From assembly GCA_016781525.1 (NCBI GenBank), contig JADDQE010000117.1:4039-68038 (forward strand): a stretch of DNA of 64,000 nucleotides, written 5' to 3'. Positions within the stretch are counted from its first letter, which is position 1, and every line of letters starts with the position of its first letter. Under the pieces are notes generated by a model. That model worked only from the letters and a program-made list of their open reading frames with translations. It had not been told where the DNA came from and made no database searches. Of the stretch, positions 18,027-59,310 are shown piece after piece. Origin of the DNA: a bacterium. GTDB lineage: Bacteria; Chloroflexota; Chloroflexia; Chloroflexales; Kallotenuaceae. The position numbers and the translations under genes were made by a program.

Positions 18027-18100
18027 TGGCTGGCGGACTAGGATTCGAACCTAGATTGACGGATCCAAAGTCCGCAGTCCTACCATTGGACGATCCGCCA
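18027..18100 (-). tRNA. tRNA-Gln (anticodon UUG), CCA encoded
   Basis: hand-folded cloverleaf: acceptor TGGCGGA/TCCGCCA, D arm GTCC-AATGGTA-GGAC, anticodon arm GCGGA-CTTTGGA-TCCGT, T arm CTAGG-TTCGAAT-CCTAG, discriminator G, CCA. Confidence 0.9.
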
Positions 18101-38247: not shown

Positions 38248-39570
38248 ATGCACATTGCGATCATCGGCGGCGGCTTCGCTGGCCTTACGGCGGCCCATGA
38301 GCTGCGGGCTGCCGGGCAGCAAGTAACGGTGTTCGAGGCGGGACCGCAGCTTGGCGGTCTTGCCGCCGGCTTTAAGGCGCCCGGCTGGGATTGGGCGCTT
38401 GAAAAGTTCTATCACCATATTTTCCAAACTGATAAAGCAATCATCGGCCTGGCCAAAACCATCGGCGCGGGTGAGATGCTCTTCTTCAACCAGCAGACGA
38501 CCGCGTTCCTATGTCCCGAGCACGGGGCGCACCCAGTCAGCATCCCCGGCATTCTCACTTTCCCGCATCTGCCGTTGATTGACCGCCTGCGGTATGGGCT
38601 AACACTGGCGCAATTCAAGCTCCGACGCGACTGGCAGCGGCTGGAGCAAACGACGGCCGAGCGCCATCTACGGCGATGGTCGGGCGACCGCGCGTACAAG
38701 CAGTACTGGGAGCCGCTGCTCGTAGGTAAGTTTGGACCGTATGCTGGCGAGGTAAACGCCGCATGGATCTGGGCTCGGATCAAGACCCGTTCGTTTAAGC
38801 TCGGGTATTTTAAGGGAGGCTTCCAAGCCTTCGCGGACGCGCTTGGCTCATATATCGAGCGCCAGGGTGCAACGATTCACTTAGCGCAGCCGGTACAGCG
38901 CGTCGAGCGGGCTGATGATGGGACCTGGACGGTTGATGCCGGTGGCGCTCCAAGGCGCTTCGATCGGGTGATTGTTGCATCCGCACCCGGCGTGTTGACC
39001 AAGCTTGTACCAAGCCTGCCACGTGACTACACTGCCCGTATGACGGCACTGAAGTCGATGGGTGCGGTGGTGATGGTCGTTGCGCTGCGGCAACAGCTGC
39101 TCACGAACGGGGTCTACTGGTACATGCCGCCTAAAGAGCACTTTCCGTATCTGGCGCTGGTGGAGCATACCAATATGATCTCGCCTCAGCATTATGGCGG
39201 AGATCGGCTGATCTACTGTGGCGACTACCTCCCGGCGGACCATCGCTACTTCACCATGCCGGACGAGGATGTTAAGCAGGAATGGCTATCGGCACTTCCA
39301 CAAGTAAATCGGGATTTCCACCCTGGCTGGATTAAGCAAAGCTGGCTCTTCCGCGAGCGTTATGCTCAGCCGGTCGTTCCTGTCGACCATTCGCGCAATG
39401 TACCGTCGCTGCGAACGCCGTTAGACGGTCTTTACTTTGCCAGCTTGGCGCACGTTTATCCTTGGGACCGGGGGACAAATTTCGCGGTCGAGCTTGGGCA
39501 GCGCGTGGCGCGTGAGGTGCTAGAACAAGAGGCTAGGGGCGAGAACAAAGAACAAAGGACAGAGATCTGA
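38248..39570 (+). CDS. FAD/NAD(P)-dependent oxidoreductase, amine-oxidase/phytoene-desaturase-like
   Basis: MHIAIIGGGFAGLTAAHEL..VFEAGPQLGG dinucleotide fold; 3 nt after upstream stop; last 16 or so codons lie in a heptamer array. Confidence 0.8.
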   Translation: MHIAIIGGGFAGLTAAHELRAAGQQVTVFEAGPQLGGLAAGFKAPGWDWALEKFYHHIFQTDKAIIGLAKTIGAGEMLFFNQQTTAFLCPEHGAHPVSIPGILTFPHLPLIDRLRYGLTLAQFKLRRDWQRLEQTTAERHLRRWSGDRAYKQYWEPLLVGKFGPYAGEVNAAWIWARIKTRSFKLGYFKGGFQAFADALGSYIERQGATIHLAQPVQRVERADDGTWTVDAGGAPRRFDRVIVASAPGVLTKLVPSLPRDYTARMTALKSMGAVVMVVALRQQLLTNGVYWYMPPKEHFPYLALVEHTNMISPQHYGGDRLIYCGDYLPADHRYFTMPDEDVKQEWLSALPQVNRDFHPGWIKQSWLFRERYAQPVVPVDHSRNVPSLRTPLDGLYFASLAHVYPWDRGTNFAVELGQRVAREVLEQEARGENKEQRTEI

Positions 39571-39631
39571 CAGCTGGCGGCTGAGTACTGAGCGCTAAGA
39601 GCTGATGACTGATACCTGAAGCCTGACAGCC
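39520..39631. repeat. heptanucleotide tandem array (about 16 units, AGAACAA / AGNNCTG type; CTGA every 7 or 14 nt)
   Basis: in phase from 39541: gagaaca aagaaca aaggaca gagatct gacagct ggcggct gagtact gagcgct aagagct gatgact gatacct gaagcct gacagcc. Confidence 0.8.
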
Positions 39632-39660
39632 ACCGCCCACTGTCTCCGACTGGAAATGAT

Positions 39661-41019
39661 ATGCCTGAGGAGTCTGTTTCAACGGGAGGGCTTCTCCTCC
39701 GCCTCTTCGCCGTTCTGCTGCTGGTGGGCCTGAACGGCTTCTTTGTCGCGGCTGAATTCGCTCTTGTCGGAGCACGAGCCTCACGCTTGGAGCAGATGGC
39801 GGAGGAAGGCCGGGGCGCAGCACGGTTGGCGCGGCACATGCAAGATCATCTCGATCGATATATTGCCGCATCTCAACTGGGCATCACTGTAGCTAGCCTG
39901 CTGCTTGGCGTTCTCGGCGAGGAAACCTTTGCGCTCTTAATCGAGCCCCCGGTCGCACATGCGCTTGAGTTTGTCCTTGGTGATATCCCCGCGCTCGCCA
40001 TGTACGCGCGCACCATCAGCACCACCGTCGGTTTTGCCTTCGCGATCTTTATCGTGACCACGCTGCACATCGTGCTAGGCGAGCAGGCGCCCAAGGTATT
40101 CGCGATCCGTGCCGCCGAGCAAACGGCGCTGTTTGTGGCGCGGCCGCTCCAGCTTTTCAACCGGACCTTTGGGCTGATTATCCGCTTCCTGGATTGGTTG
40201 ACGAATGGAGTGCTCCGCATCTTTGGAGTTCGCGGCCAAACCGGCCATTACGGGGCTCCAACGCTTGAGGAGCTGCGGATGATGATCCAGGCCAGCGGTA
40301 AAGAGGGCGTGCTGCACGAGGATGAACGGGAGCTGCTGATCAACGTGTTCGACTTTGGATCGCGGGCGGGGTACCAAGCGATGGTTCCACGGACCGATGT
40401 GAAGACGATCGCCGAAGATGCCACGGTGCGTGAGTTTTTGGAGCTTTTTCGCGAAACCGGGCATACCCGATTTCCGGTGCTGGGCACGGGCGGCGTCGAC
40501 GATGTTCGGGGCATTATCTCGGCCAAAGAGCTGCTTGTCGCTCTCAGTGAAGGCAATATTAACTTCGACCAGCCGATCGAGGCGCTCATTCGCCCGGCGT
40601 ACTTTGCGCCATCTACGAAGCGTGTGAGCGATCTCATGCACACCATGCAGCGCGAGCGCCAACGGATGGCGATCCTGATCGACGAATATGGGGGCATGGC
40701 GGGCATTATCACCCAGGAAGATCTGGTTGAAGAGATTGTGGGCGAGCTAGACGACGAGCTGGACACCAATCCCGACGACATTCAGTCGATCGACGCGCAG
40801 CACGCGGTTGTGGAAGGTGGCGCGCGCATCGAGGATGTCAACGACGAGCTTAACCTTGAGCTGCCTAGTGGCGAGTACGAGACAATCGCGGGTTTTATCC
40901 TGGAACAGCTTGGGCGGCTGCCCACGCCAAATGAGACGCTCCAGCACGACGGGGTGGTGCTGACGGTGCTGGAAATGCAAGGGCCGCGCATTGCACGCGT
41001 CGAAATCCGCCGAGTCTAG
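39661..41019 (+). CDS. CNNM/HlyC/CorC family transporter (DUF21, CBS pair, CorC_HlyC)
   Basis: LLVGLNGFFVAAEFALV, RTDV..CBS pair.., IDEYGGMAGIIT.EDLVEEIVGE motifs. Confidence 0.85.
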   Translation: MPEESVSTGGLLLRLFAVLLLVGLNGFFVAAEFALVGARASRLEQMAEEGRGAARLARHMQDHLDRYIAASQLGITVASLLLGVLGEETFALLIEPPVAHALEFVLGDIPALAMYARTISTTVGFAFAIFIVTTLHIVLGEQAPKVFAIRAAEQTALFVARPLQLFNRTFGLIIRFLDWLTNGVLRIFGVRGQTGHYGAPTLEELRMMIQASGKEGVLHEDERELLINVFDFGSRAGYQAMVPRTDVKTIAEDATVREFLELFRETGHTRFPVLGTGGVDDVRGIISAKELLVALSEGNINFDQPIEALIRPAYFAPSTKRVSDLMHTMQRERQRMAILIDEYGGMAGIITQEDLVEEIVGELDDELDTNPDDIQSIDAQHAVVEGGARIEDVNDELNLELPSGEYETIAGFILEQLGRLPTPNETLQHDGVVLTVLEMQGPRIARVEIRRV

Positions 41020-46110: not shown

Positions 46111-46123
46111 AGCTCCCGCAGCT

Positions 46124-46281
46124 CCTCATCTGTCAGACCACGTCTGGCGGAATTGGCACCCTTCTCGAAAAGTGAAGGAGGAGCGCTAAAGGATGCATGT
46201 GTCTTCAGCCTTCCGCCTTCATCGTTTCGTCAGGGTTGCCGGGGCTTCATCGGGCCGGTCCCTCTGCCCCTCTGGATGAGG
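46124..46281 (-). promoter_or_regulatory. SAM-I (S-box) riboswitch aptamer
   Basis: minus strand CCTCATCCAGAGGGGCAGAGGGACCGGCCCGATGAAGCCCCGGCAACC...GGTGCCAATTCCGCCAGA...GATGAGG; near-identical core to the copy at 2851-2962. Confidence 0.9.
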
Positions 46282-46299
46282 TTTATTCGATTTTGATGC

Positions 46300-52412: not shown

Positions 52413-52482
52413 AGAACAAAGGCTAGCGCAGGCTACGACCTTTGTTCTTTCTTTTTGTTTGTTCTTTCTTTTTGTAGAACAA
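52413..52482 (+). terminator. greA terminator built from AGAACAA-type units
   Basis: AGAACAAAGG-16 nt-CCTTTGTTCT (52413-52448), then T-rich direct repeat GTTCTTTCTTTTTGT x2 (52444-58, 52461-75). Confidence 0.7.
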
Positions 52483-57679: not shown

Positions 57680-58039
57680 ATGGCTCGCGTTAAGCGCGGT
57701 ACGATGGTGCGCAAGCGCCATAACAAACTACTTCGTCAAGCTAAAGGCTATCGCGGCAATCGTAGCCGCAACTACAAGGTCGCGCATGAGCAGGTGATGC
57801 GCTCGCTGGCGTACGCGTACCGCCACCGCCGCACCAAGAAGCGCGATATGCGCCGGCTCTGGATCGTGCGCATCAATGCGGCTGCCCGGCAGCATGGCTT
57901 GAGCTATAGCCGCTTCATGAGCGGCCTCAAGCTGGTCGGCATCGCCATGGATCGCAAGCAGCTCGCGGATCTCGCGGTCCGTGATGCGACGACCTTTGGT
58001 CAGCTCGCGACTCAAGTGCAACGAGTGATCAGCGCCTAG
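57680..58039 (+). CDS. rplT: 50S ribosomal protein L20
   Basis: [26 protein letters not shown].. Confidence 0.95.
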
Positions 58040-58040
58040 G

Positions 58041-58103
58041 AGAAGATAGAACAAAGAACATAGACCGGCGACAGCTCGTCTGTTCTATGCTCTTTGTTCT
58101 TCG
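58041..58103 (+). terminator. rplT terminator hairpin built from inverted heptamer half-arrays
   Basis: AGAAGAT AGAACAA AGAACAT AGACCGG .. TCTGTTC TATGCTC TTTGTTC; long imperfect stem. Confidence 0.6.
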
Positions 58104-58106
58104 CAT

Positions 58107-58895
58107 GTGATCAGTAGTCTCAAAAATCCCTCCATCAAACGTCTCCGCTCGTTGATGACCAACCGCAAGGATCGTCGTCACGAGCGGTTGTTTGTTATCG
58201 AGGGCGTGCGGCTGGTCGAGGAGGCTGTGCGCTCCGGTGCGAGATTCGCCCTGACCGTGTATAATCCGGAGCAGTTAGGGACGACTGACCGGGGAGCGGC
58301 GCTCCAAGCGGCTCTAAGCTCCATGCCCAATACCTACGCTGCACCGGCCGAGGTGATCGAGGCGATCACAGACACGGTCTCTCCGCAGGGTGTTGTGGCG
58401 GCGGTCGGATGGCCCGAGCTGGAGCCCGGCCGTAGCGGTGTGCAGCTGGTCTTAGATGCCGTGCAAGACCCTGGGAATGTCGGCACGCTGCTTCGCACGG
58501 CAGAGGCGACGGGAGTCAGCCAGGTCATCTGTTTGGCAGGGTCGGCCGATGTGTACAGCCCCAAGGTTGTCCGAGCGGCAATGGGCGCGCATTTTCGCCT
58601 CCCAATCGTGCAAGATGTGGACTGGGATGAGGCTCCTAGTTTGCTGATCGCCGCCGACAATGTGTATGCCGCGGTAGCCAACGCGACGATGCCCTACTAC
58701 GCGGCAGACTGGCGACAGCCGTCCGCTCTGGTAGTTGGGAACGAGGCAAATGGTGTCAGCGACGTGGGCTTGGCAGTGGCGACAAAGCACATCAGCATTC
58801 CGATGGTTGGGCCCGTCGAATCATTGAACGCGGCAGTCGCCGGCAGCGTCATTTTGTTCGAGGCGCTCCGCCAGCGCAAGCTAGGCCGAAGTTAG
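58107..58895 (+). CDS. TrmH/SpoU family RNA 2'-O-methyltransferase (RlmB-like)
   Basis: GTG start; LVLDAVQDPGNVGTLLRTAEA, LVVGNEANGVS, IPMVGPVESLNAAVA motifs. Confidence 0.85.
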   Translation: MISSLKNPSIKRLRSLMTNRKDRRHERLFVIEGVRLVEEAVRSGARFALTVYNPEQLGTTDRGAALQAALSSMPNTYAAPAEVIEAITDTVSPQGVVAAVGWPELEPGRSGVQLVLDAVQDPGNVGTLLRTAEATGVSQVICLAGSADVYSPKVVRAAMGAHFRLPIVQDVDWDEAPSLLIAADNVYAAVANATMPYYAADWRQPSALVVGNEANGVSDVGLAVATKHISIPMVGPVESLNAAVAGSVILFEALRQRKLGRS

Positions 58896-58899
58896 AGCG

Positions 58900-59178
58900 A
58901 GGCATCAGGCTCCAGGCGTGAGGTATCAGGGGACCGAATGCTGCCTGAGACTGGAGCCTGTTACCTGAAAGCTGAAACTTATACAGGCATTGACGAAGCG
59001 AGGATAGCAGGTAGGCCGCCAGAGAGCGCGAGGCCAGAGGCTGAAAGCCAGCGCCGGGACCGCCACTATCCGTTCCCTTCCGAGCCGACGAGTGAACACG
59101 GGAAAAGAACACAGAAGAGGGAACGCAGAACAGGAAGCACCAAGCTGTTCTATGTTCGCTGCTCTCTGCTCTCCTCGT
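58900..59178. repeat. about 280 nt of locally phased heptamer blocks
   Basis: AGGCATC AGGCTCC AGGCGTG AGGTATC AGGGGAC (58900-34); CTGGAGC CTGTTAC CTGAAAG CTGAAAC (58951-78); GCGCGAG GCCAGAG GCTGAAA GCCAGCG (59026-53); AGAACAC AGAAGAG GGAACGC AGAACAG (59106-33); CTGTTCT ATGTTCG CTGCTCT CTGCTCT (59145-72). Confidence 0.75.
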
Positions 59179-59194
59179 TACTAGCTCGCTCCGG

Positions 59195-59310
59195 TTGCCC
59201 GCCGTTATTGGGCTTCGAGAGCGCATGGAACCGCGATGAGCAGTCTGTGCGCTAAACCAGGGTGGTACCGCGGGCCGCACCTCGTCCCTGACGAGCGTGC
59301 GGCTTTTTGT
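59195..59310 (+). promoter_or_regulatory. T-box leader, 3' half (F-box, Stem III, T-box sequence, terminator) controlling pheS
   Basis: CCGTTA at 59202-07; AGCGCA..TGCGCT stem; AAACCAGGGTGGTACCGCG at 59254-72; terminator GCCGCACCTCGT-ccctg-ACGAGCGTGCGGC-TTTTT (59274-59308). Confidence 0.8.

Follow-up and report, generated by a model that had tools for sequence, protein, structure and literature searches.

A row of CTGA-bearing heptads that supplies the stop codon of one gene and runs on towards the start codon of the next raises the question of what such a tract is, how it arose and whether it acts on either gene. The tract in question is found between co-directional genes for an NAD(P)/FAD-dependent oxidoreductase and a CNNM-CBS-CorC_HlyC family (CNNM) protein, in a 64,000-nucleotide (nt) stretch of contig JADDQE010000117.1 (assembly GCA_016781525.1, positions 4,039 to 68,038 of the forward strand), which is referred to below as the window. 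Our analysis has largely shown it to be a degenerate, lineage-specific heptanucleotide repeat in the 90-nt spacer between the two genes. We consider it very probable that the tract is real, young and variable in copy number, and that it has overrun the upstream stop codon.

Structure and authenticity of the heptad array

Positions 39567-39629 of the + strand consist of nine in-phase heptads (CTGACAG, CTGGCGG, CTGAGTA, CTGAGCG, CTAAGAG, CTGATGA, CTGATAC, CTGAAGC and CTGACAG). Seven of them start with CTGA (39567, 39581, 39588, 39602, 39609, 39616 and 39623), and the remaining two carry the variants CTGG (39574) and CTAA (39595). All follow a single 7-nt register, and the positions are exactly those given in a first-pass annotation made from the sequence alone. 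The same register continues upstream through 39539-39566, where the heptads are of an AGAACAA type (GCGAGAA, CAAAGAA, CAAAGGA and CAGAGAT). TGA triplets occur at 39568, 39582, 39589, 39603, 39610, 39617 and 39624 and cover all three frames, because 7 mod 3 = 1; this property had also been noted correctly in the annotation. The features of the region are as follows.

38248-39570 (+): NAD(P)/FAD-dependent oxidoreductase, Amino_oxidase/DAO family (annotated by the sources as protoporphyrinogen-oxidase-like), 440 amino acids (aa)
39523-39567 (+): codons of the non-conserved C-terminal tail EQEARGENKEQRTEI (15 residues), the last 9 of them past the stop position of a relative (locus L001)
39539-39566 (+): AGAACAA-type heptads, translated as the end of the oxidoreductase tail (Tandem Repeats Finder at 39542-39565, plus register)
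39567-39629 (+): nine heptads that each combine a core of CTGA type with a varying 3-nt spacer (pattern match, period-7 score and column conservation)
39568-39570 (+): TGA stop codon of the oxidoreductase, identical with the TGA of the first CTGA heptad
39569-39644 (+): 39569-39580 could pair with 39633-39644 (5+5 bp) and leave the array in the loop; judged to be a chance occurrence
39630-39660 (+): remainder of the spacer, free of repeats and containing a weak Shine-Dalgarno-like GGAAA (39652-39656); its final ~17 nt are also conserved in the related locus L001
39661-41019 (+): downstream gene of the CNNM-CBS-CorC_HlyC family, 452 aa; 31 nt separate its start codon from the end of the sense-oriented array

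The pattern CTGAN3CTGAN3CTGA, with at most one mismatch, was matched 8 times in the window, and 7 of the matches were inside the array. The expectation in the shuffled window was 0.27, and none of 100 shuffles reached 8. The array region also gave the strongest period-7 self-match of the 64 kb (33/49, against a window mean of 12.3 with an SD of 3.3). Across all intergenic DNA of the window, the period-7 excess was only slight (0.260 vs ~0.25), and the GC content of the host is ~59%. Tandem Repeats Finder reported the AGAACAA part alone (39542-39565, score 34, ~3.4 copies), because the CTGA units share just 4 of 7 positions.

The possibility of an assembly error, raised with the first-pass annotation, was examined with metagenome contigs. 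In three runs of a single soil-metagenome study, contigs agreed with 39300-39900 throughout (0 differences, 0 gaps). A contig of a second study spanned 39547-39815 with two substitutions and no indel; one of these substitutions, the sole one within the array, is at spacer position 39587. The array is carried by four independent metagenome assemblies and is not an assembly artefact.

Conservation of the CTGA core

Aligned by column, the nine units have C in 9, T in 9, G in 8 and A in 8 cases in columns 1 to 4, so that 34 of the 36 core positions are kept and the C is invariant. In the spacer columns 5 to 7, 12 of 27 positions agree with the column majority and 15 depart from it (information of 0.11, 0.25 and 0.56 bits), and the nine units comprise 8 distinct types. 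Given this spacer divergence, the binomial probability of at most 2 changes among the 36 core positions is 2e-10 (1.5e-9 when corrected for the 7 possible registers). Under duplication and point mutation all seven columns should diverge alike; the bimodal columns therefore indicate that the CTGA spacing has been maintained. CTGA at 7-nt spacing thus appears, from the pattern of divergence among the units, to be maintained by selection and not just inherited.

Turnover of the array among relatives

Three related loci were compared (L001, 87% aa identity; L002, 82%; L525, 76%). Copy number, which had been marked for checking in related genomes, does vary. In the homologous tract of L001, 10.3 AGAACAA-type copies, including a perfect 40-nt duplication, are followed by a perfect (CTGAAAG CTGATGC) x 2.2, and all of this is non-coding. 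The window and L001 thus have 9 vs 4-5 CTGA units and ~3.4 vs 10.3 copies of the AGAACAA part. Co-occurring soil strains showed more variants (CTGACAC CTGACCG CTGACCG, and CTGATAC CTGATAC). The differences in copy number and the absence of the array from L002 and L525 indicate that the tract is recent, confined to a narrow sub-lineage, and expanding and contracting. Comparison of these sequences largely shows that units have been gained and lost, in the manner expected of slippage or tandem duplication.

The C-terminal tail of the oxidoreductase

The open reading frame (ORF) of the oxidoreductase (38248-39570) ends with the TGA at 39568-39570, and the annotation was correct in assigning its stop to a CTGA unit. 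In an alignment of 60 orthologues, the conserved core ends with ...ELGxRVAREVL and is followed by 0 to ~25 unrelated residues. The annotation had recommended such an alignment to test the tail for lineage specificity and a variable length, and it shows both. In order of relatedness, the stop moves stepwise and the proteins end with VLE* in L525 (76%), VLQG* in L002 (82%), VLEPGVRG* in L001 (87%) and VLEQEARGENKEQRTEI* in the window. The TAG stop of L001 aligns exactly with a GAG in the window, and the AGAACAA-type heptads that follow it are non-coding in L001. The last 9 codons of the window ORF lie past this position and are therefore a stop-loss read-through into the repeat tract, which ends at the TGA of the first CTGA heptad. 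Judged by the alignment, the tail is a young, unconserved and incidental extension with no sign of conservation or function.

Two suggestions of the first-pass annotation can be kept in part. The end of the tail is indeed encoded by in-phase heptads, but these are of the AGAACAA type, and the CTGA unit supplies the stop only. Similarly, the notion of a repeat expansion captured as coding sequence applies to the translated AGAACAA heptads, but the capture amounts to a merely incidental read-through of nine codons.

RNA folding and recurrence in the window

Folding of the RNA gave z scores against shuffles of +1.03 for 39520-39680, -0.05 for the array and -0.64 for 39562-39652 (49/200 shuffles), none of which is significant. 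The closing hairpin proposed in the annotation can be drawn, with GACAG/GGCGG at 39569-39580 paired to CCGCC/CTGTC at 39633-39644, and it appears in the centroid fold; however, the last of these z scores is for the segment that holds it, and no counterpart exists in L001. No complementary TCAG or TTGTTCT arm was found near the array. At the gathering threshold of Rfam 15 there was no match at the array, and a permissive search (E<=10) of 39450-39720 gave two nonsensical matches to eukaryotic long non-coding RNAs. Accordingly, a known RNA family was rejected at both thresholds, and a structured RNA or terminator was rejected because no fold is more stable than those of shuffles and L001 lacks the closing hairpin. 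Selection for a lack of RNA structure is not supported for this array, whose z score is ~0. The lack of significant RNA structure in the spacer is compatible with a single-stranded platform.

The 64 kb contain one strong CTGA array and one weaker CTG-type hairpin arm, and other intergenic regions contain heptads with other cores. A CTGA regulon was rejected for the 64-kb window, where CTGA doublets outside the array occur at chance level.

Heptad arrays in other genomes

An exact scan for four CTGA heptads, with one genome per species, found at least 120 stretches holding at least 150 arrays. The matches listed include members of the Acidobacteriota, Chloroflexota, Cyanobacteria, Verrucomicrobiota, Planctomycetota, Gemmatimonadota, Bacteroidota and Proteobacteria. 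Among the 150 CTGA arrays listed, two thirds reach at least 5 units and 99 have at least 3 different spacers. Orientation was assessed by a strand-symmetric test, which took the first ATG opening at least 150 codons past the array edge. Such an ATG was found within 30 nt of the array on the sense side for 27 of the 150 listed arrays and on the antisense side for 5 (p = 5e-5). For the listed single-arm degenerate arrays that resemble the one studied here, the corresponding numbers were 15/59 and 2/59 (p = 0.001). The present array thus fits a widespread class that favours sense-strand positions close to start codons. Start-proximal heptad arrays of any core are slightly A-rich on the sense strand.

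About one third of the CTGA arrays listed have an inverted TCAG-type partner. The inverted pairs listed are ordered 5'-TCAG...CTGA-3' in 49 cases vs 3 in the opposite order, a polarity for which no explanation was found. Two individual loci are of note in this set. Three TCAG/CTGA hairpin modules flank a small gene resembling xseB at 6650-7240 of L008. In L035 (~2247-2300, + strand), a row of GTGATAA, CTGATGA, CTGATAA, CTGATAA and CTGAAAC ends 4 nt before GGGGCTGTGGCTCAGATGGATAGAGCA, which resembles the 5' end of a tRNA gene and not a protein start.

CTGA is not the only core that forms such arrays. In IMG/VR viral contigs (L181-L524), five-unit arrays of CTGA, AGTC and GCTA were all abundant among the matches listed, and loci with one heptad array usually held several of other cores, at roughly one per 9 kb. 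Heptad arrays are therefore regarded as a general phenomenon, and CTGA as a uniquely special heptad core was rejected because the AGTC and GCTA controls match as readily. Among unselected heptad arrays CTGA/TCAG is the commonest core (23/222), followed by its neighbours AGCT, CAGC and ACTG. In unselected related loci, 12 arrays had a period of 7, vs 0, 3, 0 and 1 for periods of 5, 8, 10 and 11.

Proposed action of the array and rival explanations

The conservation of the core while the spacers drift, together with the sense placement of the class near start codons, led us to propose an action at the level of messenger RNA (mRNA). The array would form part of the CNNM leader, as a largely single-stranded row of CUGA sites spaced by 7 nt. 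A binder of single-stranded RNA (ssRNA) with a heptamer footprint (a cold-shock-domain protein or one with an S1-type OB fold), or the ribosome itself, may load on this row and thereby modulate translation of the CNNM gene. Termination of ribosomes in all three frames by the array would be a side effect. We put forward such a function in the CNNM mRNA leader or translation-initiation region tentatively, whereas the explanation as a whole, comprising identity, evolution and RNA-level action, is held with moderate confidence.

Several observations weigh against an RNA-level function. The array is missing from L002 and L525 despite the same gene order, and the spacer there is unrelated and non-periodic. 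More distant CNNM orthologues (14 loci, 49-61% identical) have no CTGA arrays upstream. Within the 64 kb, CTGAN3CTGA doublets outside the array number 3, vs 2.3 expected by chance. With a z score of ~0, the array is not less structured than shuffles. The runs holding the locus include no RNA run, and the DNA runs match as contigs. At the level of the class, the gene calls in foreign loci depended on crude ORF rules, and the core-conserved, spacer-variable look of the database matches partly reflects how the arrays were selected. The control cores AGTC and GCTA were equally easy to match in viral contigs and gave the same spacer-diversity statistics. Finally, a gap of 31 nt, with the weak Shine-Dalgarno-like GGAAA in it, lies between the array and the ATG, unlike in the TAACTGA repeats described below, which typically stand ~1 nt from start codons.

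The main rival, which we regard as a real but lesser possibility, is that the tract is a neutral, slippage-prone heptanucleotide simple sequence repeat (SSR) without function, tolerated in a young junction, with a CTGA periodicity derived from a duplicated seed. Heptamers are the commonest long SSR class and are ascribed to slippage, according to the account of Mrazek et al. (2007) given in PMC4679880, and among periods that are not multiples of 3, 7 is the commonest (12 arrays) in related loci taken without selection. The window's heptad tracts of other cores, the perfect 14-nt and 40-nt duplications in L001, the existence of close relatives without the array and the insertion of the CNNM gene, which makes the spacer young, are also in line with it. 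A neutral SSR is not expected, however, to combine four near-invariant columns with three randomised ones in 8 unit types of 9 (p ~1e-9), and the cross-phylum sense bias towards start codons is likewise unexpected of neutral DNA.

The remaining readings are less likely than a neutral SSR. The array could be a barrier of stop codons, with a TGA every 7 nt that blocks read-through in all frames or enables coupling of termination and reinitiation; the first-pass annotation had similarly suggested a stop-codon-dense insulator. The first unit does end the upstream ORF, TGAs occur in all frames and the variant CTAA is still a stop. Likewise, TAACTGA carries two stops per unit, and 13 of its sets overlap upstream stops (PMC4679880). 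Three units would nevertheless be enough to close three frames whereas nine are present, and the C that is invariant in 9/9 units is irrelevant to a stop. Three-frame stops were also not enriched in start-proximal heptad arrays of any core (22/59 vs 147/491, or 37% vs 30%; p = 0.30), and close relatives do without the array. The barrier is improbable, and at the level of the class the insulator suggestion is unsupported.

A double-stranded DNA operator, in which a cooperative omega- or SARP-like binder would occupy contiguous 7-bp sites and control a CNNM promoter, is more improbable still. By analogy, nine contiguous core-conserved 7-bp units would resemble omega-type operators. In Streptomyces, heptameric direct repeats serve as DNA-binding sites (PMC5930380), and heptamer repeats in Nostoc are reported to affect LexA/NtcA action at a promoter (10.1101/2022.06.06.494920). 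Against this, no sigma-70-like promoter was found in or beside the spacer, the TGGTATACT promoter of distant orthologues is absent here and none of the adjoining genes is a candidate regulator. Strand specificity and closeness to start codons across the class also fit RNA better than duplex DNA. Least credible, and largely refuted, is a structured RNA, such as a terminator, an attenuator or a riboswitch-like leader, in which GACAG..GGCGG/CCGCC..CTGTC pairing would loop out the array. The pairing in centroid structures, the significant hairpin arms formed by other heptad tracts of the window (z = -2.4 and -3.4) and the inverted TCAG partner of about one third of the species-genome CTGA arrays listed speak for it. 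Against it are folds no more stable than shuffles, a pairing that is absent in L001, and a spacer with neither a complementary arm nearby nor a terminator-like site nor a meaningful Rfam match at E<=10.

If the proposed RNA-level action is extended beyond this locus, (CUGANNN)n arrays would be a cross-phylum mRNA-leader cis-element that is read by a conserved ssRNA-binding factor or the ribosome, with TAACTGA as a special case. We consider this generalisation speculative and rather unlikely. If true, the 5'-TCAG...CTGA-3' polarity (49 vs 3) would reflect the same sense-strand requirement, and the present locus would be a freshly evolved case that is still expanding over the upstream stop codon.

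At the locus itself little is at stake, as the tail is accidental and the array is dispensable in close relatives. Start-codon-proximal heptamer repeats have been noticed repeatedly (cyanobacterial short tandemly repeated repetitive sequences (STRRs), Beggiatoaceae TAACTGA and Nostoc recF/recO). The new points here are that the 4-nt CTGA core at 7-nt spacing alone is under apparent constraint, that CTGA arrays occur well outside the reported phyla (for example, in Acidobacteriota, Chloroflexota, Verrucomicrobiota, Planctomycetota and Gemmatimonadota), and that they show sense-strand closeness to start codons and a marked polarity of inverted pairs. Should a binder exist, the arrays would amount to a simple and portable element of translational control; otherwise they would be a clean natural example of slippage tracts remodelling gene ends.

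Gene neighbourhood and other elements of the window

The gene order, all on the + strand, is LPG_synthase_TM, oxidoreductase, CNNM/CorC and NUDIX. The spacer between the oxidoreductase and CNNM genes yielded neither a promoter-like nor a terminator-like site, and the four genes therefore look like one operon. The named relatives of the oxidoreductase are from Chloroflexota metagenome-assembled genomes (Herpetosiphonaceae with 68-70% identity, Oscillochloris and others). The runs that carry the locus are soil metagenomes, and the organism is an uncultured soil member of the Chloroflexota. A CNNM/CorC gene is located between the oxidoreductase and NUDIX genes only in the sub-lineage of the window, L001, L002 and L525. 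In the more distant relatives L003, L004, L526 and L527, NUDIX directly follows the oxidoreductase. This adjacency elsewhere indicates that the CNNM gene is a lineage-specific insertion and that the spacer is a young junction.

A regulatory leader specific to the CNNM/CorC family was rejected as an explanation of the array, since the 14 orthologue loci and the syntenic L002 and L525 are all devoid of it. Those 14 loci carry a TGGTATACT promoter of their own and a conserved leader unlike the present one. In L129, L131, L140 and L155, TGGTATACT forms a conserved promoter of the extended -10 type, situated ~60-110 nt before the start of the CNNM orthologue, and it is followed by a conserved leader, GGCGCAGAACGGCGCTGCCAYGCATT..CGCCTGCTGTTCC, that matched no Rfam family. 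This leader could be an undescribed cis-regulatory leader of Chloroflexota CNNM/CorC genes.

Other repeats and RNA elements were observed on the + strand of the window. Directly after the rplT stop, a significant hairpin at 58036-58110 pairs an AGAACAA-type arm with a TTGTTCT-type arm (z = -3.4). Another, at 58893-58982, directly follows the stop of a TrmH-family methyltransferase gene and pairs AGGCNNN with GCCT/CCTG-type heptads (z = -2.4). A T-box leader is located at 58981-59292 upstream of pheS (start 59371), with a match to RF00230 of 50.6 bits (E = 3.4e-10), lower than the gathering score of 93, and a canonical GGGTGGTACCGCG box at ~59261. An AGAACA/TGTTC arrangement within this leader (59102-59172) is similar to the heptad-armed hairpins. 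A perfect 17-nt tandem repeat, TTTGTTCTTTCTTTTTG x 2.1, occupies 52441-52475 (Tandem Repeats Finder score 70), where the start of an ORF was called at 52459; the repeat is of the reverse-complement type of the AGAACAA heptads. On the - strand, Rfam matched two SAM-I riboswitches (86 and 78 bits) and one tRNA gene (2851-2961, 46123-46282 and 18030-18100, respectively).

Comparison with known systems

Several RNA- and DNA-binding systems have, like the array, a short fixed period. Among the ring-shaped attenuation proteins, which act next to a terminator/antiterminator, HutP recognises UAG sites spaced by 4 nt (a 7-nt period) in 2 x 3 sites, and TRAP recognises 11 G/UAG repeats. The present array resembles both in that a short core recurs at constant, short intervals in a leader without structure ahead of a gene, and HutP also in the 7-nt period. 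It differs from them in its core (CUGA, not NAG), its nine contiguous sites and its phylum, and neither a terminator-like site in the spacer nor a hutP/mtrB-like gene in the neighbourhood was found. For OB-fold proteins of the cold-shock-domain and S1 types, a 7-nt footprint would explain the 7-nt period on single-stranded RNA. The known preferences of cold-shock proteins are T/U-rich and not CUGA, and the link of these proteins to CTGA repeats is by analogy. The omega repressor of pSM19035 binds contiguous 7-bp operator sites that overlap a promoter, with one ribbon-helix-helix dimer per heptad. The nine contiguous 7-bp units of the array are alike in this respect, whereas no promoter-like site was found in the spacer.

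Heptanucleotides are the commonest long simple sequence repeats (LSSRs) in prokaryotes, and slippage has been proposed as their origin (Mrazek et al., 2007, as summarised in PMC4679880). The array shares with LSSRs and STRRs the 7-nt unit, the intergenic site and a copy number that differs between close relatives. Those repeats are near-perfect heptamer copies, unlike the CTGA part, which shares 4 of 7 positions, has bimodal columns and was not reported by Tandem Repeats Finder. In Nostoc, heptamer repeats are situated ~30-100 nt from start codons or promoters; they are reported to affect LexA/NtcA action at a promoter and may have a regulatory role (10.1101/2022.06.06.494920).

The closest counterpart is the TAACTGA heptamer direct repeat of marine Beggiatoaceae, Cyanobacteria and some Bacteroidetes (MacGregor, 2015; PMC4679880). 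These repeats are mostly intergenic and forward-oriented directly upstream of start codons, with a modal distance of 1 nt, and often take the place of a Shine-Dalgarno sequence; 169 sets, typically of 2-6 units, were counted in ~5,330 genes (PMC4679880). They place stops in all frames, two per unit, and in 13 sets the repeats overlap with the stop that ends the preceding ORF (PMC4679880). Single-base variants are rarely repeated in that genome, and the sets are sometimes interrupted by related heptamers (PMC4679880). Little structure is predicted for them, and S1, cold-shock-domain and CsrA-like proteins were discussed as binders; in work cited in the same paper, CspB is reported to bind with one protein per heptamer (PMC4679880). 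In our literature search, no paper later than MacGregor (2015) was found that resolves the function of heptamer repeats.

The present array is like TAACTGA in its 7-nt period and its CTGA tetranucleotide, as the other register of TAACTGA is CTGATAA. It is also intergenic, in sense orientation upstream of an ATG, provides stops in three frames, overlaps the upstream stop codon, is broken by related heptamers and has no significant secondary structure. The unit sequence itself is different: none of the nine units is CTGATAA, and the nearest is CTGATAC. Only the 4-nt core is kept while the other 3 positions are free, and there are nine units against the typical 2-6. The host is a GC-rich member of the Chloroflexota, a phylum not reported in MacGregor (2015), and within the 64 kb there is no sign of a genome-wide set. 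Stop-overlapping, sense-oriented heptamers of the CTGA type upstream of a start codon are already described for TAACTGA (PMC4679880); the tract described here differs from known heptamer repeats by its degenerate spacers, its Chloroflexota host, its nine units and its 31-nt distance from the start codon.

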